A stretch of DNA of 64,000 nt. Origin: an uncultured bacterium (GTDB taxonomy: Bacteria; Muiribacteriota; Ozemobacteria; Ozemobacterales; Ozemobacteraceae). The notes below the pieces were generated by a model. The model saw only the letters and a program-made list of their open reading frames with translations. It did no database searches and had not been told where the DNA came from. The stretch spans positions 62,502 to 126,501 of the forward strand of contig CAYMEN010000003.1 in the NCBI GenBank assembly GCA_964389325.1, written 5' to 3'. Below, piece after piece: positions 14,704 through 63,672 of this stretch. A program made the position numbers and the translations under genes. Each line of letters starts with the position of its first letter. Position 1 is the first letter of the stretch.

Positions 14704-14706
14704 TGG

Positions 14707-15777
14707 CTACCTCGCACTCGTGCCTGATTTTACGGCGGGGGCATCGGCGGAGGCCGCCGGTTCGTCGGTGTGTTCCTCGTCGAGCGACGCCTGGATGAGA
14801 TACTTCGCCGCATCCTCGGGCGGAACGTGGTTCACGTAGAACCCCGAGCCCCATTCGAATCCTGCGACCTTCGACAGCCGGGGCATGATCTCGATATGCC
14901 AGTGGAAGTAGTCGGCGCAGTGCTCGTCGCACGGGGACGTATGGATGATGTAATTGAACGGCGGCTGGTCGAGCGTCTTGATGAGCCGCCGGAGGGTGCC
15001 GCTCATCATCTCGGCGAGGTTGTCCAGTTCGGCCTCTTCGATGTCGCCGAAGGATGCCTTGTGGTCCTTGGGGGCGATCCAGGTTTCGAACGGGAAGCGG
15101 GATGCGAAAGGCGCGAATGCGACGAAACTCTCGTTCTCATGGATGATCCGGTTGCCGGCGCTCAGTTCCTGGCGGATGATGTCGCAGAAGACGCAGCGTT
15201 CCTTGTAGTAGTAATACTGGCGGGCGCCTTCAACCTCTTCCATGACGCGCTTCGGGATGATCGGGGTCGCGATCAGCTGGGAGTGCGGGTGATCGAGGCT
15301 GGCCCCCGCGGCGGCGCCGGAGTTCTTGAACAGCAGGATGTAACGGAACCGCCTGTCGCGTTTGAGGTCGCGGTACCGGTCGGCGTAGGCGCTGACGATC
15401 TTGAAGACGTGCTGTTTCGAGTAGGCTTCGAACCCCTGATCGTGGATCGGTGTCTCGATGATGACCTCATGGGCCCCGACACCGTTCATCATGTCGTAGA
15501 GGCCGAGGCCGGTGCGGTCGAGGTCGCCCTCGATCTGGAGGGCGGGGTAGCGGTTCGGAACGACGCGTACCTGCCAGCCCTGCTGGTTCGGGAGGGTGTT
15601 CGGCTCCCGGTAGGACATCACTTCCGGGGGCGTCATCGACTCCTGGCCCGGGCAGAACGGGCATTTTCCGGTCTGTGCCTTCGGTTTTGCCGAAGGGAAG
15701 TCTTTCGGGCTCTTCGCCTTTTCGTGTACGATGATCACCCAGCGCTTGGTGACCGGATCCTTGCGGAGTTGCGGCAT
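14707..15777 (-). CDS. galactose-1-phosphate uridylyltransferase-like protein, tandem paralog
   Basis: CPFC motif and canonical HPHSQ motif; 3-nt spacing to downstream paralog; start taken at MPQLRKDPV (ATG 15777) rather than upstream in-frame ATG at 15840. Confidence 0.7.
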   Translation of the reverse strand: MPQLRKDPVTKRWVIIVHEKAKSPKDFPSAKPKAQTGKCPFCPGQESMTPPEVMSYREPNTLPNQQGWQVRVVPNRYPALQIEGDLDRTGLGLYDMMNGVGAHEVIIETPIHDQGFEAYSKQHVFKIVSAYADRYRDLKRDRRFRYILLFKNSGAAAGASLDHPHSQLIATPIIPKRVMEEVEGARQYYYYKERCVFCDIIRQELSAGNRIIHENESFVAFAPFASRFPFETWIAPKDHKASFGDIEEAELDNLAEMMSGTLRRLIKTLDQPPFNYIIHTSPCDEHCADYFHWHIEIMPRLSKVAGFEWGSGFYVNHVPPEDAAKYLIQASLDEEHTDEPAASADAPAVKSGTSAR

Positions 15778-15996
15778 CCTGACCTCCCGGGGTCCCCCAG
15801 ATTCATCGGGAATTATACTATGCCTCCCCGACAATCGCAACGGCCGGTAGCGGGGAATACACGAACTGGTGCCCCTCCGCGAAAATCGTTGACAAGGTGA
15901 CTGCGCTCGGTTACACTTGCACCGGTCGTGATCCGCGAGGTCACGCCGTGCATTTCATACATGAAACGATGGCGAAAAGGCAAAAAGAGGTAATCC

Positions 15997-36699: not shown

Positions 36700-36772
36700 T
36701 CGTTTCTTTCTCTGCGTCTCTGCGACTCTGCGGTTCAATCTTCGTATCTCCGTGACTCTGTGGTGCGTTGTT
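36700..36772. repeat. intergenic repeat element, copy A (shares an exact 17-mer at 36704-36720 and an exact 13-mer at 36759-36771 with copy B at 60099-60175, in reverse-complement orientation)
   Basis: TTCTTTCTCTGCGTCTC at 36704-36720 is the reverse complement of 60117-60133; CTGTGGTGCGTTG at 36759-36771 is the reverse complement of 60099-60111. Confidence 0.55.
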
Positions 36773-36861
36773 TTGTCAACATTCCGGGCACGAGCGGAAA
36801 CTCATGCGCTCGCGCTGGTTGGGCTCTTGCATTGATGGCGGGGATCAGGCATCATGCGGAC

Positions 36862-38466
36862 ATGCGCCTTTCCCGCCTCTTGCTCGGATTGCTCCTCGTC
36901 GTTCTGTGCGCCGCTCTTGGCGCATGGGGCGCGCTCTCGTCGGTCGCGGGAAACGAGTATGTCGTGCGCTGGGGGGCAATGATGGCCGCCCAGAGCCTCG
37001 ATGCCGACATGCAGCTCGGAAGGGTGACCGGAACCGTGCTGGAAGCCCTGCGCATCGACGGCGTCCAGGGCATGGTGCGCCGCTCGCGGACGGGATTCGC
37101 GGCGGGGCCGGTCGAAATCTCGTTCAACCTGCGTGAAGCCGCTCACCGGGGCCTCGTCATCGGAACGCTGAACTGTCCCTGGCTGAAATTCTGGGGCGGC
37201 GTGCCGGTGCCGCCCTGGCTGGGCGGTTTGCCGGAGCTGCCTCCGCCGACGTGCCAGGCCGACCTGAAACTTCCGGTCGGCATCGACCGCATCCGCCTCG
37301 ACCGCATCGACTGGATGCCGACGGCATCCGGGCCGGTCGAGGTCACGGTCGCCTCGTTCGCGATCGATGCGGCATCACGGACGAACGGTCTCCAGCCCGT
37401 CTCGTTCTCGCTGTCGGTTCGGTTCAAAGGCGCCGAGTTCGCCGCCGCGGCTTTCGAGGGACACCTGGCCTCGACCAGGGCGTCCCTGTCTGGAAAAATA
37501 GCAGGAAATATATTTAGCTTTCCCGTCGACGCCGGCCTGAAGGTTTCGGTGAAGCGGGACGGCGTCTTCGCCGAGGGGACACTGGCCGAAACCCGGATCG
37601 ACCTGACGGTGCTGTCGAAATGGCTCAGTCCCCTCTGGCGGGACACCGTGCCGCTGTTCGTGAACGGAGGGATCACCGGGGGAGGAACCTGGGTGGCCCA
37701 GCCGAAGCTCGGCTTCGCGGGCCGGTTCCAGGGGCGGTTCGATCGCGTCGTGTTCGTGCTGACCGGGTTCAACCTGCCGCTCGCCGAACTGGACGCCCCT
37801 TGGAAATGCTTCGACGGCAAGCTGCGCGTCGAGCATGGAGACAGCCGTTTCATCGGCTTTCCAGCCTCCTTCAGCGGGACCGTCGGGCTCGCCGCCGGTC
37901 TGAAGCCTGACTGGAGCATCGAAGCCCGGGTCGCCGATCTTCCCCTGGCCGATCTCGTCGCAACCCTGCCGTGGGCGGTGCGATACGGGTACGGTGTTCC
38001 CGATCTGGCCGGCCTGGCAAGCATGACCGCCCGGTTCGACGGAACCGCGCCCGGCATCCTCGTCAACGCGACGGCCCTGGTGGCCCGGCAAACCGGATCG
38101 GCCGCGACATCGAGCATTTCGATCCGCTACCGTCACGCGGCCGGGCAGCCGGACCGCTGGGACCTCGAATCCTGCTGGACGGCTGAAACCGACATGCCGA
38201 AAGGTTTTGCCGGACTTCCCGTGCGCGTGGCCCCTTCGGGAGAACCGTTGCGGCCCCCGTTCGAATTCCGTTTCGAGGGATTCGGGACGTATCTCGACAA
38301 GCTCGATACGCGGCTGGGCATTTTCTGGAAAGACGGCGGTGCCTGGCAGGCAACGGGGCTCCTCGAAGGCCACGCCTGGGACGGCCCCGTCGTCGGTCAG
38401 GACGGCCAGCCGGTGGCGATCCCTCAGGATCTGGGCCTGATCGATTTTCTGCTGCCGGGAACGTAA
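36862..38466 (+). CDS. hypothetical secreted/membrane-anchored protein (about 535 aa); start uncertain (alternatives 36760, 36835)
   Basis: N-terminal signal-like MRLSRLLLGLLLVVLCAALGAWGA; coding GC3 bias; no recognisable catalytic motif. Confidence 0.4.
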   Translation: MRLSRLLLGLLLVVLCAALGAWGALSSVAGNEYVVRWGAMMAAQSLDADMQLGRVTGTVLEALRIDGVQGMVRRSRTGFAAGPVEISFNLREAAHRGLVIGTLNCPWLKFWGGVPVPPWLGGLPELPPPTCQADLKLPVGIDRIRLDRIDWMPTASGPVEVTVASFAIDAASRTNGLQPVSFSLSVRFKGAEFAAAAFEGHLASTRASLSGKIAGNIFSFPVDAGLKVSVKRDGVFAEGTLAETRIDLTVLSKWLSPLWRDTVPLFVNGGITGGGTWVAQPKLGFAGRFQGRFDRVVFVLTGFNLPLAELDAPWKCFDGKLRVEHGDSRFIGFPASFSGTVGLAAGLKPDWSIEARVADLPLADLVATLPWAVRYGYGVPDLAGLASMTARFDGTAPGILVNATALVARQTGSAATSSISIRYRHAAGQPDRWDLESCWTAETDMPKGFAGLPVRVAPSGEPLRPPFEFRFEGFGTYLDKLDTRLGIFWKDGGAWQATGLLEGHAWDGPVVGQDGQPVAIPQDLGLIDFLLPGT

Positions 38467-42434: not shown

Positions 42435-42463
42435 GTAGGGGCGGGTTTGAAACCCGCCCCTAC
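42435..42463. promoter_or_regulatory. GC-rich perfect palindrome GTAGGGGCGGGTTT g AAACCCGCCCCTAC in the divergent intergenic region between the SLH-protein gene and the V-ATPase operon
   Basis: 14-nt arms, read directly; position between divergent starts suggests operator or structured leader rather than terminator. Confidence 0.4.
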
Positions 42464-42563: not shown

Positions 42564-42593
42564 TTGCCCTGAGAAGGGAGGGTGTGGTATAAA
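42564..42593 (+). promoter_or_regulatory. candidate sigma-70 promoter for V-ATPase operon: TTGCCC - 18 bp - TATAAA with upstream TGG
   Basis: Hexamers read from sequence about 65 nt upstream of atpE ATG. Confidence 0.35.
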
Positions 42594-42659: not shown

Positions 42660-43271
42660 ATGAGTATCGATGTCGCAACCTTCACCAAGCAGCTTCGCGA
42701 GGACGGTATCGAAGCCGCCCGCCGCGAGGCCGAAAAGATCCTGGCCGATGCGAAGGCGAAAGCCGAACACGAGAAAGAGCAGGCGAAGGCCGCGGCCCGC
42801 CGCATGGTCCAGGATGGGGAGGCCGAGATCGCCCGGCACCGGCAGAAGGTCGAAGCCGAGCTCAGGCTCGCCGCCCGCGACCTGGTTCTCGACGTCAAGA
42901 AACGCCTGGAAAACCTGACCCGCGGCCTTCTCCAGCCGGTCATCGCCGAGAAGCTGTCGGCGGCCGACGTCGTCGAATCCTCCCTCCGGGAACTCCTGAA
43001 AACCCAGAAAACCGGCCGCGAATGGGAAGCGGCGCTCGGCCCCGTCGTCGGCGCGAAGCTGACCCAGGCCGCGCTGAGCGACCTGTTCAAAACCGCGGAC
43101 GGCCGCGTGAAGCTTGGCGAGGCGCTCAAGTCGGCCGGCTTCACCCTGCGCGACACCGCTTCCGGCGAAGTCGTCGAACTGACCGAAGCCTCGGTCGCCG
43201 ATGCCTTCGGCCGCCTGGTCGCGCCCCAGCTCCGCGCCCTCCTGGACAAGTCCGAAAACGCCGGAGCCTGA
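42660..43271 (+). CDS. atpE: V-type ATP synthase subunit E
   Basis: About 200-aa all-alpha, A/E/K-rich coiled-coil protein at head of V-ATPase operon; GAAGGAG RBS. Confidence 0.75.
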   Translation: MSIDVATFTKQLREDGIEAARREAEKILADAKAKAEHEKEQAKAAARRMVQDGEAEIARHRQKVEAELRLAARDLVLDVKKRLENLTRGLLQPVIAEKLSAADVVESSLRELLKTQKTGREWEAALGPVVGAKLTQAALSDLFKTADGRVKLGEALKSAGFTLRDTASGEVVELTEASVADAFGRLVAPQLRALLDKSENAGA

Positions 43272-43280
43272 GTCGCAACC

Positions 43281-43985
43281 GTGAGCGCGCGACTCTACTA
43301 CCTCCTTTCCGCCCTGCCGCCCCTGCCGGGGTTCGGCGAGCAGCTCCCGTGCGGCCTCGGCGACGTGCTCGCGGCCATGCGCGCGGAAGAGGACCCGACG
43401 CTCGACACCCTCGCGGACTGTTTCTCCGTCGAGCCGGCCCTGCGCGCGATGCAGAAAAGCCGCCTGGTCGGACATCTGCCCGAGCCGCCGGCCGACCTGA
43501 TGGAGCTTCTGCCCGACTGCATCCGGGAACGGGTCGCCGTCTGGCCGTCCCGCGAGGAGGAAGTCGCCTGGCACGAGAGCGTCTGCTTCGCCTGGTTCGA
43601 GTTCATGCACCGGACGGGCCACGCCATCGGTTCCAGACTGCTCCAGCGCTGGAGCGCCTGGGAAATGACCCTCGCCGTGTATCTGGCGAACGCTCGTGAT
43701 ACCGCGGAATCCGCCCCGGCGAAGGACCGCCCTGTTTCGCCTGAAGCCCCGGCCTTCGATTACGATGGGCTGGTGGCCGAATGGCACAACACCGCCGACC
43801 CGATGATCGGCGAGCACAAGCTCGACGAGGCCCGGTGCGCCTTCCTCGCCTCGGAATCGACCCGATACTCGTTCGAGATCGACGAACTCGTCTTCTACCT
43901 GCTGAAACTCAGACTGTTGTCCCGGTATGCCACTCTCGACCGGGGCACGGCGCTCAAGATACTCGAGGAGGTCACAGCCCTGTGA
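43281..43985 (+). CDS. V-ATPase operon-associated hypothetical protein (DUF2764-like position, as in Chlamydiae/Spirochaete V-ATPase operons)
   Basis: Located between subunit E and subunit A genes, exactly where the conserved hypothetical gene sits in Chlamydia and Borrelia operons; too short for subunit C. Confidence 0.45.
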   Translation: MSARLYYLLSALPPLPGFGEQLPCGLGDVLAAMRAEEDPTLDTLADCFSVEPALRAMQKSRLVGHLPEPPADLMELLPDCIRERVAVWPSREEEVAWHESVCFAWFEFMHRTGHAIGSRLLQRWSAWEMTLAVYLANARDTAESAPAKDRPVSPEAPAFDYDGLVAEWHNTADPMIGEHKLDEARCAFLASESTRYSFEIDELVFYLLKLRLLSRYATLDRGTALKILEEVTAL

Positions 43986-45721
43986 GCGTATCCGGACGCA
44001 TCGTAACGATATTTGGAAATATGGTAACCGCCGAGTTCGACGGCGCTGTCCGGCAGAACGCCGTCGCCTACTGCCACCGCGCCGACGGCGTGCGGCTGAT
44101 GGCCGAAATCATCCGCATCCGCGGGAACCGGGCCGACATGCAGGTCTTCGAGCTGACGCGCGGCCTCAAGGTCGGCGACACGGTCGATGTGACGGACGAG
44201 TTGCTCTCCCTCGAACTCGGGCCCGGCCTCCTCGGCCAGATCTACGACGGGCTGCAGAACCCGCTGCCGGTGTTCGCCGAAAAGGTCGGCAAGTTCCTCG
44301 AGCCCGGCAACTACTTCAAGCCGCTCAGCCGCGAGACGAAATGGGAGTTCACCCCGCTCGCGAAGACCGGCTCGACCGTTCGCGCCGCCGACGCGCTCGG
44401 CAAGGTGCAGGAAAGCATCTTCGACCATTACATCTTCGCCCCGTTCGATCTCGAAGGCGAGTGGAAGCTCAAGAGCCTCGTCGGGGCCGGGTCCTATACG
44501 ATCGAACAGACGATCGCCGAACTCGAGAACGCCGACGGAAAAACAATATCGGTAAATATGATAAACCGCTGGCCCGTCCGCATCCCGCTGACCCATTACG
44601 CCGAGCGGCTTCTGCCCGTGACCCCGCTGGTCACGAAGCAGCGCATCATCGACACGTTCTTCCCGATCACGCGCGGCGGCACCTACTGCATTCCCGGCCC
44701 GTTCGGCGCCGGCAAGACCGTTCTGCAGCAGATCACCAGCCGACACGCCGAGGTCGACGTCGTCATCTCCGCCGCCTGCGGTGAACGCGCCGGCGAGGTC
44801 GTCGAGACGCTTCGCGAGTTCCCGCACCTGACCGACCCGCGCACCGGCAAGACGCTGATGGAACGCACGATCATCATCTGCAACACGTCCAGCATGCCCG
44901 TCGCGGCCCGCGAGTCGTCCGTCTACACGGCCGTGACGCTCGGCGAATACTACCGTCTCCAGGGGCTTCACGTGCTGCTGCTGGCCGACTCGACCTCCCG
45001 CTGGGCCCAGGCCCTGCGCGAAATGAGCGGCCGCCTCGAGGAGATCCCCGGCGAGGAGGCCTTCCCGGCTTACCTCGAAAGCTCGATCGCCCGCTTCTAC
45101 GAGCGCGGCGGCTCGGTGAAACTGCGCGATGGCCGCGAAGCCTCGCTCACGATCGGCGGCGCCGTCAGCCCCGCCGGCGGCAACTTCGAAGAGCCGGTCA
45201 CGCAGGGCACGCTCAAGGTCGTCGGCTCGTTCCTCGGCCTGTCGTACGCCCGCTCCTACGCGCGCCGCTACCCCGCGATCGACCCGCTCGAGTCCTGGTC
45301 GAAATACCGCGGCATCATCGACGAAAAGAAGGTCGCCTGGGCCCGCTCGTTCCTGCGCCGCGGCCGCTCCGTCTTCGAGATGATGCAGGTCGTCGGCGAG
45401 GAAGGCACCTCGATGGACGATTACGTCGTCTACCTCAAGGGCGAGTTCCTCGACTCGGTGTACCTGCAGCAGAACTCGTTCGACGACGTCGACGCCGCCT
45501 GCCCGCCCGAGCGCCAGCAGGACCTGTTCGGCCGCGTCTGCCGCGTGCTCGAGCACGAGTTCTCCTTCGCCGACAAGGACGGGGCCCGCGACACGTTTTT
45601 CACGCTCACCGAGCAGTTCCGCAACTGGAACTACGCGAAGAGCGGCACGGATGCCATGAAGGATGCCGAAACGAAGATCGCGTCCTGCCTGCAGGCCGAC
45701 AAGGAGGCCGCCCATGCGTAA
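43982..45721 (+). CDS. atpA: V-type ATP synthase catalytic subunit A
   Basis: Walker A GPFGAGKT, non-homologous region, conserved A-subunit blocks; GTG start overlapping upstream stop. Confidence 0.95.
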
Positions 45722-47048
45722 ATACTACACCCGCATCGACCGCATCGCCGGAAACGTCGCCATGCTCAAGGCGACCAACGTCGGCTTCGAGGAGCTCGCC
45801 ATCATCGAGGGCCGCGTCGGCCGCTCGCTCGCCCAGGTCATCAAGGTGTCGGGCGAGGATGTCTCGCTTCAGGTCTTCTCGGGAACCCGCGGCCTGTCGA
45901 CCGGCGACCGCGTGAGCTTCCTCGGCTCGGCGATGCGCTTCAGCTTCTCCGAAGACCTTTTCGGCCGTATCTTCACGGGCGGCGGCGAGCCGCGCGACGG
46001 CCGCAGCACCCTCACCGAGAACCTCATCGAGGTCGGCGGCCCGGCTGTCAACCCGGCCGTGCGCCTCATGCCCAGCCGCATGATCGCCACGAACATCCCG
46101 ATGATCGACGTGTTCAACACCCTCGTCGAGGGCCAGAAACTGCCGATTTTCTCGATTCCCGGCGAGCCCTACAACGAACTGCTCGCGCGCATCGCCCTCC
46201 AGGCCGAGGCCGACGTCATCGTGCTCGGCGGCATGGGCCTCAAATACGACGAATACCTGTACTTCAAGCAACGTCTCGAGGAAGGCGGCGCCCTGTCGCG
46301 CACCATCATGTTCGTCCACACCGCGTCAGACCCGGTCGTCGAGTGCATGCTCACCCCCGATATCGCCCTGACCGTGGCCGAACGGTTCGCCGTGCAGGGA
46401 AAGCGCGTGCTGGTGCTGCTGACCGATATGACCAACTTCGCCAACTCGCTCAAGGAGATCGCGATCACGATGGAACAGATCCCGTCGAACCGCGGCTACC
46501 CGGGCGACCTGTATTCCCAGCTCGCCTCGCGGTACGAGAAGGCCGTCGTGTTCGACAACGGCGGTTCGCTCACGACGATGGCCGTCACCACGATGCCGGG
46601 CGACGACGTCACCCACCCGGTTCCGGATAACACCGGCTATATTACGGAAGGCCAGTTCTACCTGAAGGGCGGCTGGATCGAGCCCTTCGGCTCGCTCTCG
46701 CGCCTCAAACAGCTCGTCAACGGCCGCACCCGCGACGACCATCGCGCCATCATGGACGGCTGCATCCAGCTCTACTCGAAATGCCGCGAAACCCGCGAGA
46801 AGCGCGCCATGGGCTTCGAGATGTCGCCGTGGGACCTGAAGCTGATCCGGTACGGCGAGCAGTTCGAACAGCGGGTGATGGACCTGTCGGTCAACAATAC
46901 GCTCACCGTCGCCCTCGACCGGTGCTGGGAACTCCTGGCCGAGGTGTTCGAGCCGCGCGAGACCGGCATCCGGTCGGCGCTGTGCGAGAAATACTGGCCG
47001 AAGAAGGTGGGCGCCGTCGTCGAGACCGCCGCCCCCGACGGTCAGTAA
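45714..47048 (+). CDS. atpB: V-type ATP synthase subunit B
   Basis: Conserved B-subunit sequence (no functional P-loop: GMGLKYDE...), follows atpA. Confidence 0.95.
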
Positions 47049-47066
47049 CGCCGGAGACCGCCGCAG

Positions 47067-47681
47067 ATGGCTGAAAAGATCAAGAAAACCCGTCCGGAAC
47101 TGCTGAAGCAGAGACGATCGCTGGCCTTGTTCCAGCGGTTTCTGCCGACGCTCCTGCTGAAGAAACAGCAGATCCAGATGGAGATTCTGAAGGTGCGCAC
47201 GCAGCGCACGCGCATCCGCGAGGAGATCGACCGCATGGTTCGCCAGATCGAGCCGTGGCTCACCCTCTTCAGCGAGGATCTGCCCGGACGCGTGACGGAC
47301 CTGGTGCGCGTGAAGCGTCTCGAGCGCGGCGAGATGAACGTCGCGGGCATCCGCCTGCCGGTCTTGCGGCAGGTCGAGTACGAGATCGCCCCATACAGCC
47401 GGCTCGTGATGGCGGCCTGGGTCGATGCCGGCGTCGAGTTCGTGAAAAACCTGCTCCAGGAACGGGAACGGCTCAGAATCCTCGTCGAGCAGGAACGGCT
47501 GCTCCAGTCCGAACTTCGCAAGGTCACGCAGCGGGTGAACCTCTTCGAAAAAGTGATGATCCCGCGTGCGAAGGAGAACATCCGCACGATCCGGATCAAC
47601 CTCGCCGAAGAACAGACGGCGGGCGTCGGCCGCTCCAAGATTGCCAAGGGGAAATCCGCCGTCGGGGAGGAAGGCGCATGA
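47067..47681 (+). CDS. atpD: V-type ATP synthase subunit D
   Basis: About 200-aa coiled-coil central-stalk protein with typical N-terminal KxxLxxL heptads. Confidence 0.85.
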   Translation: MAEKIKKTRPELLKQRRSLALFQRFLPTLLLKKQQIQMEILKVRTQRTRIREEIDRMVRQIEPWLTLFSEDLPGRVTDLVRVKRLERGEMNVAGIRLPVLRQVEYEIAPYSRLVMAAWVDAGVEFVKNLLQERERLRILVEQERLLQSELRKVTQRVNLFEKVMIPRAKENIRTIRINLAEEQTAGVGRSKIAKGKSAVGEEGA

Positions 47682-49432
47682 TCCAGGAAATGCGTCGCGT
47701 GTATATCGCGGCCCGCCAGGGTGATCGCCAGTCCGTTCTCGCGGCCCTGTTCGCCGCCGGTGTCGTGCATGTCGAACCGGCCCGCCCCGACGCGGTGAAG
47801 CCATCCGCCGAACTGGCGCATGACCTGGCCCGAGGCGAGAAAGCCCTCCAGGCGATCGATGCCGTCGAACCGTCTGTCGACGCCGTCGCGGCCCCCCCGG
47901 GAACCCCGGCGCGGCTGATCGACGAGGTGCATGCGCAGCTCGTCCTGATCGAACGCCTCCACACGGACCGCCAGGAACTCAAGCGGGAGCTCGCCCAGGT
48001 GAAGCCCTGGGGCCGCATCAGCCAGGCGGATCTGGAAAAGCTCGTCGCGGCGGGACTTACCATCCGTTTCTGCATCTGCCCCCCGGCGTATATCGCTGAC
48101 TCTATAACTGCTGATATTATACAAGGAATCAACGTTGCGGACGGCGTGCTGGCGGTTCTCGCCGTGAGCCGCGGTTCCGTCGAGGTCAGGCCCCCCGCGC
48201 AGGCGGTTCCCGTCCCGTCACGGGACGCCACGGAGATCGAGGCGGCTCTCGCCACGCTCAAGGAGGAGGAACGGCGCCTGTCCGGCCAGCTCCGCGAACT
48301 CGCCATGCGGCGGGAGGACGTGCGGAGCTATCTGGCCGAACTGAAAGAGCGCATCTCATTCCAGACCGTCGAGGCCGGGCTTGCCGAAGAAGGCCCCGTT
48401 TACATCATGCAGGGCTGGGTGCCGGAAAATCACGTCGAGGCGCTTCATACCGCTCTCGAGGGAACCAGGCTTCCCATCGGTGTCGTGACGCAGGCGCCGG
48501 CCGCCGACGAGGCGCCGCCGACGGCATTTTCGAACTCGCCCTGGGTGCGGCCCGTCGAGTGCCTGTTCTCCCTGCTCGGCGTCACGCCGGGCTATCGCGA
48601 GGCCGACATCAGCCCGGCGTTCCTGCCGTTCCTCACGATCTTCACCGCCATGCTCGTCGCGGACGCCGGATACGGCATCGTGGCGCTCGTCGCCCTGCTG
48701 GCGGCCCGGAAGCCCCTGATCTCGCGGGGCGTGCCGGAACAGGTGCTGACGCTGTTCACGATCCTGTTCGCGGGGGTCGCTGGGTGGGGCGTGTTGACGA
48801 ACGCCTGGTTCGGGGCGCCGCTGATGAGCAAGGCGCTGATCCTGACCGGCGACCAGCAGAAGGACGAACTGTTCCTGAAACAGCTGTGCTTCCTCATCGG
48901 CGCCGTTCACCTGACGGTCGCGCACGTCTGGAAGATCCGGCGCGCCGCGCTCGGTCTCACGACGATCGCCGAGGCCGGGTGGGTGCTGTTCATCTGGGCC
49001 ATGTGGGCGCTGGTCGAAGTGCTCGTGAATGGCAGCCCGGCGCCGTTCTGGATGCTGCCGCTGTTCGGCGTGTCCCTGTTCATGATCGTCCTGTTCACGG
49101 ATTTTTCGTGGAACCTGTTCGCGGCGGTGGGAAAGGGGCTCGGCGCCGTCGCTCTCAACGCGGCGGGTTTCCTCGGGGATATCATCAGCTATATTCGCCT
49201 CTGGGCCGTCGGGCTTGCCGGAGGCGTTTTGGCGGCGAGTTTCAACGAGATGGTGCGGCCGCTTCCCCTGCTGCTCGTCGTCGTGATCCTGGTGGCGGCC
49301 CATCTGCTCAACTTCGCGCTCGGTCTCGTCGCGATCTTCGCGCATGGGGTGCGGCTGAACCTTCTCGAGTTCTCGAATCATCTCGGTATGGAATGGACGG
49401 GGCGCGGATACGACCCGTTCGGGAAAAAGTAA
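47678..49432 (+). CDS. atpI: V-type ATP synthase subunit I (a-subunit, membrane sector)
   Basis: About 580 aa; cytoplasmic N-terminal coiled-coil half and polytopic C-terminal half with conserved Arg-containing helix (IISYIRLWAVGLA); ATGA overlap with atpD. Confidence 0.85.
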   Translation: MIQEMRRVYIAARQGDRQSVLAALFAAGVVHVEPARPDAVKPSAELAHDLARGEKALQAIDAVEPSVDAVAAPPGTPARLIDEVHAQLVLIERLHTDRQELKRELAQVKPWGRISQADLEKLVAAGLTIRFCICPPAYIADSITADIIQGINVADGVLAVLAVSRGSVEVRPPAQAVPVPSRDATEIEAALATLKEEERRLSGQLRELAMRREDVRSYLAELKERISFQTVEAGLAEEGPVYIMQGWVPENHVEALHTALEGTRLPIGVVTQAPAADEAPPTAFSNSPWVRPVECLFSLLGVTPGYREADISPAFLPFLTIFTAMLVADAGYGIVALVALLAARKPLISRGVPEQVLTLFTILFAGVAGWGVLTNAWFGAPLMSKALILTGDQQKDELFLKQLCFLIGAVHLTVAHVWKIRRAALGLTTIAEAGWVLFIWAMWALVEVLVNGSPAPFWMLPLFGVSLFMIVLFTDFSWNLFAAVGKGLGAVALNAAGFLGDIISYIRLWAVGLAGGVLAASFNEMVRPLPLLLVVVILVAAHLLNFALGLVAIFAHGVRLNLLEFSNHLGMEWTGRGYDPFGKK

Positions 49433-49444
49433 GGAGCTGAAACC

Positions 49445-49942
49445 ATGATTGAACTGCTTGGCAAGTTTGCGTGTGGTCTCGTTCTCGGCCTTGGCGGCAT
49501 CGGAAGCTGCCTCGGTATCGTCTCCGCCGGCACGGCGGCAGCCGGCGCCTGGGCAAGCGAAGGAAAAGCAGGCAGGAACCTGTCGTTCCAGTACATCATC
49601 ATGGTTGCGGCGCCCATCAGCCAGACGCTCTATGCGATGATCGTCATGCTGACCATGATCAAGGTTGCCGGCAATCCCGAAAACGCCCTGCTGTGTCTCG
49701 GCGTCGCCCTCGGAACCGGCATCATCGAGCTTTTCTCGGCCTGGTATCAGGGCCTCATCGGCGCCGCCGGCATCCGCGCGATGGTCGAGAATGGCGGCAA
49801 GGGATTCGGCCTGCTGATCATCGCCCTCGGCATCATCGAGACCGTCGGGATCTTCGGCATGGTGTTCGGCCTCCAGATCCTCAACTCGCCGCTCGCGAAA
49901 GCGATCGCCGAAGCCGGCGCCGCGGCCGCCGGAGCGCAGTAA
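49445..49942 (+). CDS. atpK: V-type ATP synthase proteolipid subunit K
   Basis: 4-TM glycine-rich proteolipid with conserved Glu (IIETVGIFG). Confidence 0.9.
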   Translation: MIELLGKFACGLVLGLGGIGSCLGIVSAGTAAAGAWASEGKAGRNLSFQYIIMVAAPISQTLYAMIVMLTMIKVAGNPENALLCLGVALGTGIIELFSAWYQGLIGAAGIRAMVENGGKGFGLLIIALGIIETVGIFGMVFGLQILNSPLAKAIAEAGAAAAGAQ

Positions 49943-49985
49943 GTTTCCTCTTCGGCGAAGCGCTTCCCGCTTCACCGGTCTCGAA

Positions 49986-50027
49986 CATCGGGTTTTTCGG
50001 GCAAACACCGGAAAACCCGATGTTTTT
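49986..50027 (+). terminator. rho-independent terminator of V-ATPase operon
   Basis: CATCGGGTTTTTCGG gcaaaca CCGGAAAACCCGATG followed by TTTTT. Confidence 0.7.
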
Positions 50028-50072
50028 GCGTGAATACTGCGCGCTGTTGCTAAAGACCGTGACGGGGCCGTT

Positions 50073-50580
50073 TCACTGACCGGCCCGGAGCGGCTGCTTC
50101 TCGACCTTGATGTTGCCGATCCAGACGGTTCCGGGGCCATCGAGAACGAGGTTCAGGATGATCTTCCGGACCGATACGCCGGGCTGATTGACCGCGAACG
50201 GGATTCTCACGGTTTTCCAGTCGGAATCCCCCGATACGACCTGATCGAGTCCGCGGGAGAAATAGCGACCTTGTGGCTCGGTTTCCACCCACATCTCGAG
50301 AAGCGCCCCGTTCGCGACACCCTGTGTTTTCAGATCGGCCTGGAACCAGATAGTGGCGTTCTCGATGTGCTGCGATTCGATCTCTCCGACGCAGATCTGG
50401 GCCGAGTGGGGCGAGGAGAGTTTCAGGGAGCTTTTGCCGGCGATCTTGGTCGTCTCGTCCAGGACGATCCTGGTTTTCACCTGGTCGAGGGAATCGAACG
50501 CGATCGTCTGAATCTCCTGGGAAAAAGACGGGCCGCAGGTCAGGAGAAGGAGAAGAAGCGGAGCGAGAATTTTACTCATG
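50073..50580 (-). CDS. hypothetical secreted protein (169 aa)
   Basis: Signal peptide MSKILAPLLLLLLTCGPSFSQE; directly downstream of the 951-aa gene on the same strand. Confidence 0.45.
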
Positions 50581-50657
50581 TGAGCCTCCGGAAGGTGAAT
50601 ATGAGGAATCATCAGCCTGGTGCCGGCTGTCTTCCCTGGTCGGGGCAATCGCCTGCA

Positions 50658-53513
50658 TCAGGCGTGTTTGCGGAAGTGCCGGAGCCAGGCGAGGAATTTT
50701 TCGGTCTGGGAGCCGATCAGTTCGGTCAGGAGAATCGCCTCGCGGTCCTGGTAGTTCTTGAGGGCGAACTCCGACAGCAGGTTGAGGCAGCCGGGGTCGC
50801 TGAACAGTTCGAGCAGGCGGTCGAAATGATGCCTGAACTCCTCGGCCTTTTTCTGCCGCTCCTCGGTCGAAAGGCTGGGACGACGCAGTTTGAGCCGCTC
50901 GAGGAGGGACAGCGGCTGGTTGAACAGCTGGGAGAGGCAGGTCGGGCCCCGGGGCTGGCGCGCCCAGATATACAGGATGTCGAGCATCGCGGTGAGCCGC
51001 ATGTCGCGATCGTGCGAACTCAGGCGCGGAAGCAGTTCGCTGAGGTCGCGCTTGCGGATGACGACGCGCTGTCTGTATTTCCCGAAGCCTTCGATGAAGC
51101 CGCCGACGACGTCCGACCAGAGTTTCGCCTGGACGATGCTCGGGATGCCGATCAGGTTCCCGATCGGCGCGAAGGCCGTCGCGAACGGCCAGGCGAGCAC
51201 CGTGCGGAAGAAGTTCGCCCGGATGACGCGTCGGTCGAAGTTGCGCAGCCTGTTGTGGGTGCTGATGTAGATCCCGTTCGCCATGCACAGGAAGAAAAAC
51301 TTGGCGGCCTCGAACAGGAAGCCCGCCTTTTCGAGCGGCCAGCTGTCGTCGAACGCGATCTTCACGAAGCCGAGGATCGGGACACTGAAACCGGTCCAGA
51401 ATAAAGACTGTGATATATTATCAAAGTTGACGTTGCGCAGGCTCCAGTTCCGGATGAGGATCCCGGAGCTGGCGAGCAGGTCGACCAGCATGTTCCGGGT
51501 GCCGGTGATCAGGAACCAGATCACGGCGAACATCACGCCGGCCAGCTGGCCGAACTGGTAGTTCATGAACGAGAACGCCACGATGAACCCGATGGCGATG
51601 CGCCAGAGGCTCTTGAGGCCGGGGTTCACATACGCCCAGAACTCGCCGGGCGGAACGAGGTCGAGCGCTTCCTCGTCTCCGACCAGGTTCCGGAAGGGCT
51701 TGCCGATTTTGCCCATGCAGACGACGTCCGACCCGCTGCCGATCGGCGCATCGGGGCTGTCGTCCTTCTTCCCGTCGTGGATGACGAGGTCGGCGATCGG
51801 CCGGGGGACCTTGTAGTGTGACTCGAGAAACTCGGGGCGCACCGACTCGGGAATGTCGCTGACCTTGATGAAACCCATTCCCGGGATCGTCGGGTCGCGG
51901 CCGGTCGAATCGCTGCCGCAGACCGGGATCAGCGGCCGGCGCGCGGTGAGTTCCCGGGCCTTTTGCACCTGCTGCCGGACGCCGCCCGTGATCCCGTGCT
52001 GTTCGAGGAAGTTCACGACGTCGTCCTCGGTGCCGTTGTTGAGCAGGTAGACGAACTTGTTGAAGATGATCAGGTCGTTCGGGTTGCGCGCCGAGCTGTC
52101 GCGCAGGTTCAGCGTCTCGATGTGCGAGATGCGGGCGATGTGCTTGAGCAGGTGCTGCATCGAGTCCTTGAGCCCGATCTCGAGGGGGTGGATCATGACG
52201 ATCCGGCCGCCCTGGCCGATCAGGGTGTCGAGTATCGGCTCCTCCTCGGCGAACTCGCTGTCGTAATCGACGACGTCCCGGCCCTCCATGTAGGAGGCCC
52301 GCAGGCTTTCCGGCGTCATCGTCTCGTACTGCTCGCGCACGGCCTCATACTGCGACGAGATGTTCTTGAACTCCCACTCGCTGTAGATGCCCCGCGTGAG
52401 GCGGTCTTCGGCGGCGAGCACCTGCGCCTTCAGCTGGAGGACGCGGCGCTGGAGGATGTCGCGGAACTTCTGGAACAGCAGTTCGCCGATATGGACTCTC
52501 GAAATCTGCCCGCACGCAACGATCCGGTCGAGCTCCTCGAGGGTGAGCGGCGGGAACCAGCAGGGGCTGTCGGGTTCCCAGCCGGAGTTGAGCCGTGGCC
52601 GCTGGAGCGTGTTGAACCGCTCGACGGCGGCGACCATCGTCTTGTGGCGGCTCGCCGCGTTCGTGCGGAGGCCGCTCAAAAACGGGGTGAAAATCATCCG
52701 GCGCTCGTCGAAAAACGCGAAAAACGCTTTGCTGTCGGCGGTTTCGGGCGGCACGTACATGTAGTGACGCCGGGCGCCGCTGTGGCCGACGCTGAACTCG
52801 ATACCGATGTTCACCTTGATGCCGAGAATGTTGCCGGCGGTGATCGCCTCATGGATCATCCGGCGCTCGTCGAGGTTCGAATACACGATGGTGAGCCGGG
52901 AAATGCCCTTCACGAAAGCGTCCAGCAGCACCTGCGTCGGGGTCTTGCGGCCTTCCGACAGGAAGTCGTGAACGTGGTCGTCCCAGCCCATGTTCAGCTC
53001 GCGGAGCGGCTTTTCCTCTTCGGGGACTTCGACCAGGTGGAGTTTGTTCAGGAACCGGCGGACGACCGCTTCCTGCCCGAACGAGACCAGGCCGAAGTCG
53101 GCCATGGCTTCCATCTGGCGCCGGCGGTTGCTGCGCGATTTGACGACTTCCTTCATCAGGTCGATCTGGATGCGCGCCGTGTTCAGCGGCATGTTGATCG
53201 TCTTCGCGTGGAGGGACTGGTCGACCATCATCGAGAGGGCGGCCAGCCGCTCCTCGGCGGAGTTCGGAGAAAGGTCACGCGCGATCTTGATGTAGGCGCC
53301 GGCGATGCTGAGACGCCGCTTGCCGAAATCGCGAACGAAGCCGCCGGGGTGGGAGAGGTGCCGGACGTTCAGCCGGGTCGGGGGTTCGTCGAGTTTGTGG
53401 TTGACGGCATCGACCAGCGACTCGATTTCGTTGTTGAAGCTCAGCCACTCGATCAGGCTGGACAGCAGACCGACAGCCGTGTCGTGGGATGTTTGCAGCA
53501 GCCAGCGGAGCAT
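50658..53513 (-). CDS. large hypothetical membrane protein (951 aa): about 600-aa soluble N-terminal region, then a multi-TM block, then a C-terminal soluble region
   Basis: Continuous ORF with coding GC3 bias; hydrophobic helices between about residue 600 and 800 (e.g. WRIAIGFIVAFSFMNYQFGQLAGVMFAVIWFLITG); no motif recognised. Confidence 0.5.
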   Translation of the reverse strand: MLRWLLQTSHDTAVGLLSSLIEWLSFNNEIESLVDAVNHKLDEPPTRLNVRHLSHPGGFVRDFGKRRLSIAGAYIKIARDLSPNSAEERLAALSMMVDQSLHAKTINMPLNTARIQIDLMKEVVKSRSNRRRQMEAMADFGLVSFGQEAVVRRFLNKLHLVEVPEEEKPLRELNMGWDDHVHDFLSEGRKTPTQVLLDAFVKGISRLTIVYSNLDERRMIHEAITAGNILGIKVNIGIEFSVGHSGARRHYMYVPPETADSKAFFAFFDERRMIFTPFLSGLRTNAASRHKTMVAAVERFNTLQRPRLNSGWEPDSPCWFPPLTLEELDRIVACGQISRVHIGELLFQKFRDILQRRVLQLKAQVLAAEDRLTRGIYSEWEFKNISSQYEAVREQYETMTPESLRASYMEGRDVVDYDSEFAEEEPILDTLIGQGGRIVMIHPLEIGLKDSMQHLLKHIARISHIETLNLRDSSARNPNDLIIFNKFVYLLNNGTEDDVVNFLEQHGITGGVRQQVQKARELTARRPLIPVCGSDSTGRDPTIPGMGFIKVSDIPESVRPEFLESHYKVPRPIADLVIHDGKKDDSPDAPIGSGSDVVCMGKIGKPFRNLVGDEEALDLVPPGEFWAYVNPGLKSLWRIAIGFIVAFSFMNYQFGQLAGVMFAVIWFLITGTRNMLVDLLASSGILIRNWSLRNVNFDNISQSLFWTGFSVPILGFVKIAFDDSWPLEKAGFLFEAAKFFFLCMANGIYISTHNRLRNFDRRVIRANFFRTVLAWPFATAFAPIGNLIGIPSIVQAKLWSDVVGGFIEGFGKYRQRVVIRKRDLSELLPRLSSHDRDMRLTAMLDILYIWARQPRGPTCLSQLFNQPLSLLERLKLRRPSLSTEERQKKAEEFRHHFDRLLELFSDPGCLNLLSEFALKNYQDREAILLTELIGSQTEKFLAWLRHFRKHA

Positions 53514-60257: not shown

Positions 60258-61001
60258 ATGGGTGTGACGACGAAACACAACCGCGGCCAGGAACTTTCCC
60301 CCGACCTCGATGTCGGTGAGAACGGCGTTGCCGTCGAAGTGCCGGTGACCCGCCCCTTCGAAGGGTACACCTATATCCGCAAGGAGTGGGTCGATCAGGA
60401 AGACGGGATCGAGAAGGTCACCTTCAACATGACGCTCGGGCCGGTCAATCTTCCCGCCGACTGGAGCCGCACCCAGACATTCGTCATGATGCCGGAATGG
60501 GGCACGTCCCCCCTCCGCCGCACCTGGATCGTGCGACTGCCGACGCATCTCGAAGGGCATGATCAGTATCTCTTTCACTATTTTTTCCAAACCTACTATG
60601 CGAACGGCGAGGAACGCGTCAGCAGCATGTTCGCCCAGTTGATCCAGCCGCATGAGATCGAGTATATCGATTACGGCGGCGACCTGGTCAACGTACGGCT
60701 CCATTGGAGCGTCGGCGACTGGTCCTATGCGCAGGATACCGAGCTCGAGGCCGACGGCATCGAGTGGGGAAGCGAATTTTCCGTCAGCAGTGCGCCCTAC
60801 CGCGCCAAAGACCGTCTGTATCAGAACGGCCGCATTCTCGTGATGCGCCGCCTGCCTTTCCCACGAAGGTTTCACGGCCTGATCTGGGCCCCGAAGGGCG
60901 CCGAGGTCCGTTTCTGCTTCCAACTCGTGCGACACCGTCCCGACGGCCAGGATCTGCTGTGGGACAACAATTTCGGCAAAAATTACTCTCTGACCATCTA
61001 A
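60258..61001 (+). CDS. hypothetical protein with CBM20/21-like (starch/glycogen-binding-type) C-terminal motif
   Basis: C-terminal LLWDNNFGKNYSLTI resembles the conserved WDNN.G.NY end of CBM21/CBM20 domains; AAGGAGAG RBS. Confidence 0.4.
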   Translation: MGVTTKHNRGQELSPDLDVGENGVAVEVPVTRPFEGYTYIRKEWVDQEDGIEKVTFNMTLGPVNLPADWSRTQTFVMMPEWGTSPLRRTWIVRLPTHLEGHDQYLFHYFFQTYYANGEERVSSMFAQLIQPHEIEYIDYGGDLVNVRLHWSVGDWSYAQDTELEADGIEWGSEFSVSSAPYRAKDRLYQNGRILVMRRLPFPRRFHGLIWAPKGAEVRFCFQLVRHRPDGQDLLWDNNFGKNYSLTI

Positions 61002-61022
61002 TCGGCGAGGAGACTGTCACCC

Positions 61023-61589
61023 ATGAGACACCCTGATATTCTTACCCGTGAAGGCGCCGTCCTTCTCATCACCGATGTACAGAAGAAGTGCATCAAGCCC
61101 ATCTACCGCAAGGAACCGATGATCAACAACATCAAGACCCTCGTTTCCTACGCCGGCATGATCGGCCTGCCCATCCTCCTCACTGAGCTGGCTCCCCAGA
61201 CGTTCGGCGGCACGATCGAAGAGATCAAGAAGCTGATTCCGCGTCTCGAGCCGATCAAGCGCAGCCGCTACAGCGCCTTCGGAAGCGAAGATCTGACCCT
61301 GCGCCTCGAAGCGATGAACACCAACACGCTCGTCGTGGTCGGCATGGAAACCCACGTGTCGGTCTGTCAGACGGTGCTCGACGCGCTGACCCGCGGCTTC
61401 CGCGTCCACGTCGTGCTCGACGCGTCCAGCTCGCGCCGCAAGGTCGACTGGAAAGTGTCGCTCGAGAAGATGCGCCGCGCCGGTGCTATCGTGACAACGA
61501 TGGAACTGGTGATGCATGAGATGATCGAGCGCGTCGATGTGCCGCAGTTCGACAAGTTCCAGGAGCTGCTGAGCAACATCGGCCGCTGA
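61023..61589 (+). CDS. isochorismatase-family cysteine hydrolase
   Basis: Catalytic-triad arrangement D (LITDVQ) ... K ... C (VVGMETHVSVCQT). Confidence 0.8.
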   Translation: MRHPDILTREGAVLLITDVQKKCIKPIYRKEPMINNIKTLVSYAGMIGLPILLTELAPQTFGGTIEEIKKLIPRLEPIKRSRYSAFGSEDLTLRLEAMNTNTLVVVGMETHVSVCQTVLDALTRGFRVHVVLDASSSRRKVDWKVSLEKMRRAGAIVTTMELVMHEMIERVDVPQFDKFQELLSNIGR

Positions 61590-61598
61590 CGGCATCCG

Positions 61599-62372
61599 AT
61601 GATGACGATGCCGATCGACGATGCCGCCGTCATTTTCCTGATCGGCGGGCTGGGAGCCGGGAAGACCGAGCTCGCGCTGAACCTTGCTGTCCGGCGGGCG
61701 CGCAGGCTCGGCCCCGGCCGCTCCTATCTGCTCGACCTCGACATCGTCAACCCGTTCTTCCGCGTTCGGCACCTCCGCGACGCCCTGACTCGCGAAGGCG
61801 TCAAGCTGATCGCCCCCGACGCGCAGGTGACAGCGAACGACATGCCGGCGATTCCCGGCGCGGCGTTCGGCGTTCTCCAGAGCCCCGACACGGCTGTCGT
61901 CTGCGACGTGGGCGGGGGAGAGCTGGGGCTGCGCGTCCTCGGCCGACTTGCCCAGCAGGCGGCGGCGCGAAAGGCCCGGACGTATTTCGTCATCAATCCC
62001 TACAGGCCGGGCTTCACGAGCCTCGACACGATGCGGCGCAGCTTCGACATTCTCACCGAGCTTTCGGCCCTGCAGGTGACGCATATCGTTGCAAACCCGC
62101 ATCTGATCAATGAAACGACCCCCGACCTCTTCGCCGCCGGTCTCGAGAAGGTCCGGACCTTCGCGGCGGAGATGAACCTGCCGATCGCATTTTCCGTGGC
62201 GGCACCGGCGCTTCTCGGACAACTCCCGCACGAGGCGGCGAGTCCCTCGGACGAAGCGCCCACGAACCTGGTGAAGTATGACGGTCAGCCGCTCCTCGTG
62301 CTGGACCGGTACTGGGAAACACCCTGGATCATAGGAAAGGAACAGGAGGTAGCAACATGCCCAAATGGGTAA
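61599..62372 (+). CDS. P-loop NTPase of unknown function
   Basis: Walker A GGLGAGKTE near N-terminus; overlaps start of korD by 16 nt. Confidence 0.45.
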   Translation: MMTMPIDDAAVIFLIGGLGAGKTELALNLAVRRARRLGPGRSYLLDLDIVNPFFRVRHLRDALTREGVKLIAPDAQVTANDMPAIPGAAFGVLQSPDTAVVCDVGGGELGLRVLGRLAQQAAARKARTYFVINPYRPGFTSLDTMRRSFDILTELSALQVTHIVANPHLINETTPDLFAAGLEKVRTFAAEMNLPIAFSVAAPALLGQLPHEAASPSDEAPTNLVKYDGQPLLVLDRYWETPWIIGKEQEVATCPNG

Positions 62373-62563
62373 TCAATGAAGACCTGTGCAAGGGTTGCGG
62401 GATCTGTATCGCCCGCTGTCCGCAGAAGGTGCTTGGCGTCTCCGACAGCCTGTCTGCGAAGGGATACCATCCGACGAAAATGCTGAACGAAGAGAAGTGC
62501 ACTTCGTGCGCGCTGTGCGGCCGAAGCTGTCCCGACGTGGCTATCGAAGTTTATAAAGCCTGA
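62357..62563 (+). CDS. korD: 2-oxoacid:ferredoxin oxidoreductase delta subunit (2x[4Fe-4S] ferredoxin)
   Basis: Two CxxCxxCxxxCP clusters (CKGCGICIARCP, CTSCALCGRSCP), 68 aa, upstream of korA. Confidence 0.8.
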   Translation: MPKWVINEDLCKGCGICIARCPQKVLGVSDSLSAKGYHPTKMLNEEKCTSCALCGRSCPDVAIEVYKA

Positions 62564-62586
62564 ATCATCCAGAAACGGAGAGAACA

Positions 62587-63672
62587 ATGGCTGAAAAGAT
62601 CCTGATGAAAGGCAACGAGGCGCTCGCCGAGGCCGCCGTCCTGGCCGGTTGCCGACACTATTTCGGATACCCCATCACCCCGCAGAGCGAGCTTCCCGAG
62701 TATCTCGCGAAGCGGCTTCCCGAGGTCGAAGGCGTGTTCCTTCAGGCCGAGAGCGAAATCGCGGCCATCAATATGGTCTACGGCGGCGCCAGTACCGGCG
62801 CCCGCGTCATGACCAGCAGCAGCAGTCCCGGCATCAGCCTGAAGCAGGAAGGCATTTCCTACATCGCGGCCGCCGAGCTTCCCTGCGTCATCGTCAACGT
62901 GATGCGCGGCGGTCCGGGCCTCGGCAACATCTCGCCGGCCCAGTCCGACTACTTTCAGGCCACCAAGGGGGGCGGCCACGGCGATTACCACCTGATCGTC
63001 CTGTCGCCCAACTCGGTCCAGGAAATGGCCGACATGACCGTCAAGGCGTTCGAGGCTGCCGACACGTTCAAGAACCCTGTCATGATCCTCAGCGACGGCG
63101 TTCTCGGCCAGATGATGGAGCCGGTCGTGCTGCCCGAACCGACCGATTACGACATCAACAGCAAAAAGTGGGCGCTCGGCTATCGCGGCGCCGACAAGAA
63201 AGAGCGAAACCTCGTCACGACCATCTTCATGAGCGTCGAGAACCTCGAGGAACACAACTGGCACCTGTACCAGAAATACCAGTATATCCGTGACGAGTTC
63301 GAGAAAGGCTCCTGGAAAGACCTGTCGGTCGAAGAGCACGAGTGCGAAGACGCCGACATCATCCTCGTCGGCTACGGCATCATCAGCCGCATCCTCAAGA
63401 CCGTCGTCGAGAAGTGCCGCAAGCGGGGCATCAAGGCCGGCCTGCTGCGACCCAAGTCGCTGTGGCCCTTCCCGAGCGCCCGCGTTGCCGAACTGGCGAA
63501 GAAGACGAAGCAGTTCCTCGTCGTCGAGATGTCGTGCGGCCAGATGGTCGAGGACGTCAAACTGGCGGTCGAGGGAAAGGTTCCCGTCTACTTCTTCGGC
63601 CGAACCGGCGGAACCATCCCGTCAGACTTCGAGATTCTCACCGAAGTCGACAAGATCGTGCGCCCCGACTGA
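62587..63672 (+). CDS. korA: 2-oxoacid:ferredoxin oxidoreductase alpha subunit
   Basis: Conserved N-terminal KGNEALAEAA..GC...GYPITP block of KorA/PorA family. Confidence 0.85.
   Translation: MAEKILMKGNEALAEAAVLAGCRHYFGYPITPQSELPEYLAKRLPEVEGVFLQAESEIAAINMVYGGASTGARVMTSSSSPGISLKQEGISYIAAAELPCVIVNVMRGGPGLGNISPAQSDYFQATKGGGHGDYHLIVLSPNSVQEMADMTVKAFEAADTFKNPVMILSDGVLGQMMEPVVLPEPTDYDINSKKWALGYRGADKKERNLVTTIFMSVENLEEHNWHLYQKYQYIRDEFEKGSWKDLSVEEHECEDADIILVGYGIISRILKTVVEKCRKRGIKAGLLRPKSLWPFPSARVAELAKKTKQFLVVEMSCGQMVEDVKLAVEGKVPVYFFGRTGGTIPSDFEILTEVDKIVRPD

Follow-up and report, generated by a model that had tools for sequence, protein, structure and literature searches.

A reduced V/A-type ATPase operon in an uncultured Ozemobacteraceae bacterium, and a DUF2764-type protein read as its shortened subunit C/d

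In a 64,000-nucleotide (nt) stretch of genome from an uncultured bacterium of the family Ozemobacteraceae (contig CAYMEN010000003.1 of assembly GCA_964389325.1; the whole stretch is called the window below), seven genes between positions 42660 and 49942 form a real reduced V/A-type ATPase operon of the type found in Borrelia, Chlamydia and Bacteroides. Six of the genes encode the subunits E, A, B, D, I and K, and the seventh, which lies between those for E and A, encodes a 234-residue protein that is designated X here. On the basis of its predicted fold, a comparison of family profiles and its synteny, X is concluded to be a shortened, fast-evolving homologue of subunit C/d, the rotor piece that connects the central shaft to the membrane ring. 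The favoured reading as a whole, in which the operon specifies a reduced, sodium-coupled V/A-ATPase with X as the C/d coupler and with neither F nor G in the operon, is considered probable.

Organization of the operon and assignment of its subunits

Coordinates are positions in the window, and were obtained from a list of open reading frames (ORFs) that was combined with an inspection of start codons, ribosome-binding sites and gene junctions, in which three gene starts were refined by means of ribosome-binding sites and overlaps. All seven genes lie on the + strand in the order E-X-A-B-D-I-K. The gene for the peripheral stalk subunit E (42660-43271, 203 amino acids (aa)) starts with an ATG that is preceded by the ribosome-binding site GAAGGAG, and is followed by the gene for X (43281-43985, 234 aa), which has a GTG start. 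The gene for the catalytic subunit A (43982-45721, 579 aa) has a GTG start that overlaps the stop codon of X (GTGA), and that for the non-catalytic subunit B (45714-47048, 444 aa) has an AAGGAGG ribosome-binding site and shares 8 nt with the end of A. The gene for the central shaft subunit D (47067-47681, 204 aa) shares an ATGA overlap with that for the membrane stator subunit I/a (47678-49432, 584 aa), and the last gene (49445-49942, 165 aa) encodes K, the duplicated four-helix proteolipid of the rotor ring, with one ion site. No intergenic gap exceeds 18 nt, which excludes an additional gene inside the operon. The seven ORFs and the gene list are thus as they were placed by an earlier reading of the letters of this DNA (the original prediction), and the Chlamydia/spirochaete gene order that it proposed is borne out by the family matches and by the same order in other loci.

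The family assignments of the head and shaft subunits are straightforward. Subunit A matches the NCBIfam model NF003220 with 744 bits and the Pfam families ATP-synt_ab, ATP-synt_ab_Xtn (PF16886, the A-specific insert) and ATP-synt_VA_C, and its translation contains the Walker A sequence GPFGAGKT; B matches PRK02118 with 700 bits (cut-off 431). The two are V-type subunits, the A-specific insert domain included, as is characteristic of the reduced class. Subunit D matches PRK02195 with 207 bits (cut-off 189) and Pfam ATP-synt_D with an E-value of 7.5e-35, and K matches PRK06649 (E-value 4e-26) and Pfam ATP-synt_C. Subunit I matches PRK05771.2-2 with an E-value of 1e-87, under the cut-off of the model; its best solved relative is subunit I of the Enterococcus hirae Na+-ATPase (8wci_P, 5.6e-27), to whose segment SYTRLMALG the segment SYIRLWAVG of the present protein is aligned, and a second arginine is retained in the segment HG(A/V)RL (HGVRL here).

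The assignment of E requires more care, because both V-type E models that it matches, PRK01558 (6e-14) and PRK01005 (1e-9), give scores under their cut-offs. When the family of E was compared by hhalign with canonical E, a probability of 94% and an E-value of 1.2e-7 were obtained, against a probability of 13% with canonical G, and the AlphaFold2 (AF2) model of E contains a confident helix spanning residues 5-99. These comparisons identify the protein as a genuine E rather than as a G.

The identical seven-gene order occurs in ten fetched loci (L001-L010). Four of these (L001-L004) are close relatives, L005 is from a Desulfobacterales metagenome-assembled genome, L006 is a second Ozemobacteraceae operon from a complete chromosome, L007-L009 are unrelated metagenome contigs, and L010 is from Parabacteroides distasonis, in which the second gene is annotated by RefSeq as “DUF2764 domain-containing protein” and matches that Pfam family with an E-value of 2.2e-125. 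An eleventh locus, L011, on the mobilizable plasmid NZ_CP042264.1 (333-7755) of the alphaproteobacterium Qingshengfaniella alkalisoli, has a circular permutation of the order, B-D-I-K followed by two hypothetical genes and A. The original prediction regarded the gene order as a useful phylogenetic marker, but its value as such is limited, given that the same operon is found in Riflebacteria, Desulfobacterales, Bacteroidota and on plasmids, and is permuted once. The pattern of distribution fits lateral spread.

The two hypothetical proteins of the plasmid, each of 229 aa, stand where E and X would stand, and have no credible Pfam match: the first has a sub-threshold match to Pex19 only and the second has none. 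The first gives a weak tblastn match, with an E-value of 2.4e-4, to E of the window.

The DUF2764-type protein as a shortened subunit C/d

By sequence X is a divergent relative of the DUF2764 family (PF10962), in keeping with the original prediction, which had pointed to DUF2764-type proteins at the corresponding place in the operons of Chlamydia and Borrelia. With 29.6 and 25.4 bits respectively, the orthologues of X from L005 and L006 exceed the Pfam threshold for the family, and 105 of the 108 relatives that were collected with a profile of the X family match DUF2764 at an E-value of 1 or better, the best at 5e-18. X is a real, conserved gene, and it is not the lineage-specific component that had been suggested: at a profile E-value of 1e-3 or better its family comprises at least 2521 representative clusters at 50% identity, among 1.84 billion representatives. 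It is also the fastest-evolving of the seven operon proteins. Its identity to the corresponding proteins of L005 and L006 is 34-37%, compared to 37-46% for I, 45% for E, 54-69% for K, 65-69% for D, 76-77% for A and 82% for B, and it is because of this fast evolution that sequence searches fail for X.

The length of the family members ranges from about 150 to 292 aa. Some short DUF2764-type proteins of about 150-195 aa (8001-8588 of L009, and P0026-P0032) align with the family profile over its C-terminal half alone, and the one in L009 occupies the slot between E and A, as in the standard operon. It seems that the C/d-like subunit has been shortened stepwise in some lineages.

The relation to subunit C/d emerges from three kinds of comparison, for which the reference points are Thermus thermophilus subunit C (1R5Z), rat d1 (6VQ6 chain d) and the Pfam family PF01992 (vATP-synt_AC39). 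The first is structural. The AF2 model of X, which has a predicted local distance difference test (pLDDT) score of 87.4 and a predicted template modelling (pTM) score of 0.85, is a compact all-helical bundle with the fold of C/d, and only the rotor subunits d and C match it strongly in structure. The second is a comparison of families. PF01992 is matched by 13 of the 108 members of the X family, the best with an E-value of 1.1e-7, and the orthologue in L006 matches both DUF2764 and PF01992; when the X family was aligned by hhalign with four canonical C sequences, an E-value of 4.6e-5 was obtained, with residues 31-149 of X aligned to residues 73-213 of C, and R139, the sole invariant residue of the X family, was paired with the invariant R203 of C. 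The third is position. In the canonical operons of Enterococcus, Peptoclostridium, Rubrobacter and Pusillibacter the order is E-C-F-A-B, and X therefore occupies the slot of C. The statement of the original prediction that the operon contains no recognisable C thus holds for direct sequence searches, but by fold, profile comparison and synteny X is a homologue of C/d.

Several observations weigh against this interpretation. X itself matches Pfam DUF2764 only over residues 172-225, with an E-value of 1.1e-3 and 19.1 bits against a gathering threshold of 24.1, so that it is not a member of the family by Pfam’s own rule. It has no direct match to PF01992 in the Pfam scan, and a Foldseek search with X against the PDB returned no significant match, the top one being the Thermus Vo chain 8ywt_M with an E-value of 2.2. 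The hhalign probability for the alignment with C is just 69%, and the C profile consists of four sequences only; when a single canonical C sequence was used the probability was 1.7%, the signal appearing against the four-sequence alignment alone, and the X family profile matched nothing among all PDB sequences even at an E-value of 10. X is also not of full C/d length (about 320-350 aa): with 234 aa, compared to 324-370 aa for C in the four canonical operons, it is about 100 residues shorter than C/d, and some of the contacts that C/d makes may be missing. Beyond X, the formation of a stalk without G is the weak point of the reading, F and G genes could lie in the genome outside the 64 kb in view, and the ion specificity and the direction of work are predictions.

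Ion coupling and direction of work

The residues that bind Na+ in the ring subunit NtpK of E. hirae have been listed, and the set of ligands marks Na+ binding (PMC2359735). K was aligned to the NtpK reference sequence, which is identical to 2bl2_A. Of the side chains at the site, Thr64 is replaced by S59, while Gln65, Tyr68, Gln110 and Glu139 are present as Q60, Y63, Q102 and E132; Leu61, which contributes only its backbone carbonyl in NtpK, is replaced by alanine. The side-chain ligands at positions 64, 65, 110 and 139 are retained in all eleven further K subunits examined, among which that of Qingshengfaniella has phenylalanine in place of Tyr68, a residue that stabilizes the site without ligating the ion. 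Sodium is the most likely coupling ion, given that K has all of the NtpK side-chain ligands and that the closest solved relative of subunit I belongs to the Na+-ATPase of E. hirae.

The strongest competitor to the favoured reading is a proton-coupled enzyme that acts mainly as an ATP synthase. The relatives are annotated at source as “V/A-type H+-transporting ATPase”, one site per four helices does not preclude synthesis, and a synthase role has been proposed for the operon of Bacteroides fragilis, although as a sodium-driven one (bioRxiv 10.1101/2023.05.11.540287). The retention of the Na+ side-chain ligands in every K subunit examined speaks against proton coupling, and this alternative is judged improbable, though it deserves more weight than the others considered below. 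Between a sodium pump driven by ATP and a synthase driven by sodium, the comparison leans slightly towards the pump, by analogy with E. hirae and with organisms that possess this enzyme alone. V-type enzymes are the sole rotary ATPases in most Chlamydia and spirochaetes (PMC2359735).

K also contains a membrane glutamate, E95 (codon at about 49727-49729), in helix 3 (IIELFSAW), two turns from the Na+ ligand Gln102. It is kept in the window and in L002, L005, L006 and L007, and is replaced by glycine, methionine, leucine or alanine in the other K subunits, including that of E. hirae. This glutamate may provide a second acidic residue close to the path of the ion, specific to a subclade.

Absence of F and G/H

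No gene for F or G/H is present in the operon, a feature of the reduced class that the original prediction had noted, and the genes C, F and G, whose presence just beyond the operon would have spoken against it, were not found in the flanks by the Pfam scan. The flanking genes are unrelated and lie on the opposite strand: upstream there are a divergent gene for an 818-aa Big_5-domain protein and a FapA gene, and downstream two convergent ORFs without a Pfam match (191 and 951 aa), followed by glmM. Pfam scans of about 40 ORFs of the window, with those at 60258-63672 outside the scan, gave no match to ATP-synt_F, to G/H, to AC39 or to F-type subunits, and identified instead an RND efflux system, ffh, rimM, trmD, rplS, lepB, phoH, ybeY, era and a sigma-54 activator. 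By tblastn with A and B no further A/B-like (alpha/beta-type) ATPase gene was detected in the 64 kb, and tblastn and Pfam scans together gave no separate F-type ATPase operon there. The possibility that F or G is concealed as a domain fused to another protein was considered and rejected, since none of the operon subunits exceeds its canonical counterpart in length, I being about 80 residues shorter.

It is nonetheless conceivable that the complex is not minimal, and that genes for F, for G/H and possibly for a C of full length lie in other parts of the genome. The view of the genome is limited to 64 kb, and G-like proteins are short low-complexity helices that are easily missed. On the other side, none of these genes was found within the 64 kb under the scope of the scan given above, the same ATPase genes travel together on plasmids, and a passage of PMC2936114 that cites Lolkema 2003 describes the clusters of Borrelia, Chlamydia and Kuenenia as having no homologues of C, F and G. 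Taken together, these points make a dispersed set of missing genes unlikely.

The loss of the two subunits does not pose the same difficulty in each case. Complexes of the composition A3B3D rotate without F, and the loss of F is therefore plausible. All peripheral stalks of V/A-ATPases that are known to us or have been solved are heterodimers of E and G, and it is here that the reading meets the weak point named above.

Alternative roles of X and the proposed mechanism

X could be an assembly factor or a regulator, expressed together with the ATPase but not part of it in fixed stoichiometry, and its C/d fold would then be a relic. Both its fast evolution (34-37% identity, compared to 76-82% for A and B) and the variation in length within its family (about 150-292 aa) could mean that the constraint on its structure has been relaxed. 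Yet X is kept at the same position in every fetched copy of the operon that has the standard order, its stop codon overlaps the start codon of A in the Ozemobacteraceae group (the overlap is retained in L001-L006), and without X nothing would connect D to the ring, so that a role outside the complex appears rather unlikely. It is less likely still, to the point of being very improbable, that X is a lineage-specific stator or peripheral-stalk part that replaces G/H, as the original prediction had suggested from an operon in which G is missing, X directly follows E and E alone would make an unusual stalk, because X is modelled as a compact bundle of helices and not as a single helix of about 100 residues like G, its strong structural matches are to rotor subunits only, it lies in the canonical slot of C while canonical G lies upstream of I, and its family is widespread.

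X is thus more likely to be a rotor coupling piece than a stator component. In known V/A-ATPases the junction between D and the ring is the task of C/d, and we infer that X would occupy this junction in the assembled complex, and that the enzyme would work without F and G and in the direction favoured above. The mechanism that is proposed for the favoured reading would then be as follows. A3B3 would form the catalytic head and D the rotating shaft; X would cap the ring of K subunits and link D to it; the K subunits, each with four helices and a single sodium site, would assemble into the rotor ring; I would serve as the membrane stator with its conserved arginine; and E would make up the peripheral stalk or stalks, with the enzyme probably functioning in the absence of F and G/H. 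Transcription would start from the conserved promoter with its extended -10 element, some 70 nt before E, and stop at a strong hairpin terminator, and X and A, A and B, and D and I would be translationally coupled through their overlapping stop and start codons.

Comparison with known systems

The closest known systems are the operons of Borrelia burgdorferi, Treponema, Chlamydia, Ca. Kuenenia (cluster 4), Bacteroides and Porphyromonas, which share the seven genes and their order with the window and likewise lack F and G. As in the window, K in this class is duplicated with one carboxylate, and the NCBIfam models of the class for B, D and K are the best for the window’s proteins among the models of V-type subunits. 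The window differs in its host, which belongs to the Ozemobacteraceae/Riflebacteria, in its DUF2764 protein, which is shorter (234 compared to 292 aa) and falls below the Pfam threshold, and in the extra membrane glutamate E95 of K, which is absent from the K of Parabacteroides. The V-type branch that contains Chlamydia, Borrelia, Treponema and Bacteroides is strongly divergent (PMC2359735).

In Bacteroides fragilis the same operon has been described, with DUF2764 as a second gene of unknown function, and the system was called uncharacterised; that study noted the Na+ residues in K and found the operon to be essential for fitness in deoxycholate (bioRxiv 10.1101/2023.05.11.540287). Our literature search found no structural paper on the reduced seven-gene class, and nothing on V-type ATPases in Riflebacteria. 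In Chlamydia trachomatis the gene between atpE and atpA is, as we take it, CT309. This protein was included in a screen of candidate type III effectors and was scored as not secreted (PMC3931295, PMC12671076). Should CT309 prove to be the orthologue of DUF2764, this outcome would agree with an internal subunit of the ATPase.

The Na+ V-ATPase of E. hirae (ntpFIKECGABD; 2BL2, 8WCI) resembles the enzyme of the window in its A/B/D head and shaft and in its K ligands, its subunit I is the nearest solved relative, and its E is homologous. The operon in the window does not have the nine-gene composition ntpFIKECGABD: operons of the enterococcal type contain nine genes in the order G-I-K-E-C-F-A-B-D, with a C of 333 aa in E. 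gallinarum, while that of the window contains seven and lacks F and G.

Regulatory signals around the operon

A candidate sigma-70-type promoter lies upstream of E at 42564-42593 (+ strand), with a -35 element TTGCCC (42564-42569), an 18-nt spacer and an extended -10 element TGgTATAAA (42585-42593). When five orthologous upstream regions were aligned, the blocks TTTGCC and TGTGGTATAA were found to be invariant or nearly so in surroundings that diverge, and outside the ribosome-binding region few other columns of the alignment are conserved. A consensus promoter scanner made no call at 42564-42593, because the last base of the -10 element is A rather than T. Downstream of K, an intrinsic-terminator-like hairpin at 49983-50029 (+ strand) has an 18-bp stem (49983-50025) with a 7-nt loop and leads into a U tract. 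It is preceded by a smaller hairpin at about 49952-49978, and the 93-nt stretch after K has a folding energy of -42.9 kcal/mol (z -5.1); the convergent next gene ends at 50073. Both the -35/-10 pair and the terminator had been proposed in the original prediction, and both are upheld, the former by its conservation in orthologous upstream regions and the latter by its hairpin and U run.

The same cannot be said of the GC-rich palindrome that was proposed to precede the operon. The palindrome (GTAGGGGCGGGTTTGAAACCCGCCCCTAC, 14+1+14 nt) is real and perfect, lies at 42435-42463, about 100 nt upstream of the -35 element and between two divergent genes, and folds with -27.9 kcal/mol (z -6.1), with no flanking T-run. 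It occurs as a single copy in the window and was absent from the nine fetched loci that were searched, and the orthologous upstream regions do not retain it, not even that of L004, whose proteins are 93-98% identical. With one copy and no conservation, it was rejected as a demonstrated regulator, whether as a repeat element or as a conserved operator; a role in the regulation of the operon is unsupported, and it is doubtful that the palindrome belongs to the operon at all.

Other observations in the window

Several further ORFs of the window have the codon bias of genes. The two convergent ORFs downstream of the operon, of 191 aa (50073-50648, - strand) and 951 aa (50658-53513, - strand), have a GC content at third codon positions of 0.74 and 0.90 respectively, and the C-terminal half of the larger protein appears hydrophobic by eye and is possibly membrane-spanning. 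Gene-like codon bias without a Pfam match is also found in an ORF of 709 aa (11078-13207, - strand) and in one of 568 aa (36760-38466, + strand). At 13705-15840 (- strand) there are two adjacent paralogues with galactose-1-phosphate uridylyltransferase/HIT-like domains and DUF4921. No tRNA genes and no Rfam families at the gathering threshold were found in the whole 64 kb.

Significance

The reduced class itself has been known for two decades, and both its likely coupling to Na+ and the apparent absence of F and G across the whole class had been noted before. What the present analysis contributes is an extension of the reduced V-type ATPase operon to the Ozemobacteraceae/Riflebacteria, a poorly studied candidate lineage, and, as its useful addition, a specific annotation of DUF2764 as a cryptic subunit C/d. 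This reading of DUF2764 bears on no fewer than 2521 clusters (50% identity), and pathogens and gut commensals are among the carriers of the operon. Whether the complex is also a truly minimal rotary V/A-ATPase, with a coupler of about two-thirds the size of C/d (about 150-195 aa in some relatives), no F and a stalk made of E alone, is a question on which we consider the chances to be evenly balanced; if it is, such an enzyme would reveal which stalk parts of V/A-ATPases are dispensable, and how a stalk consisting only of E holds the stator.

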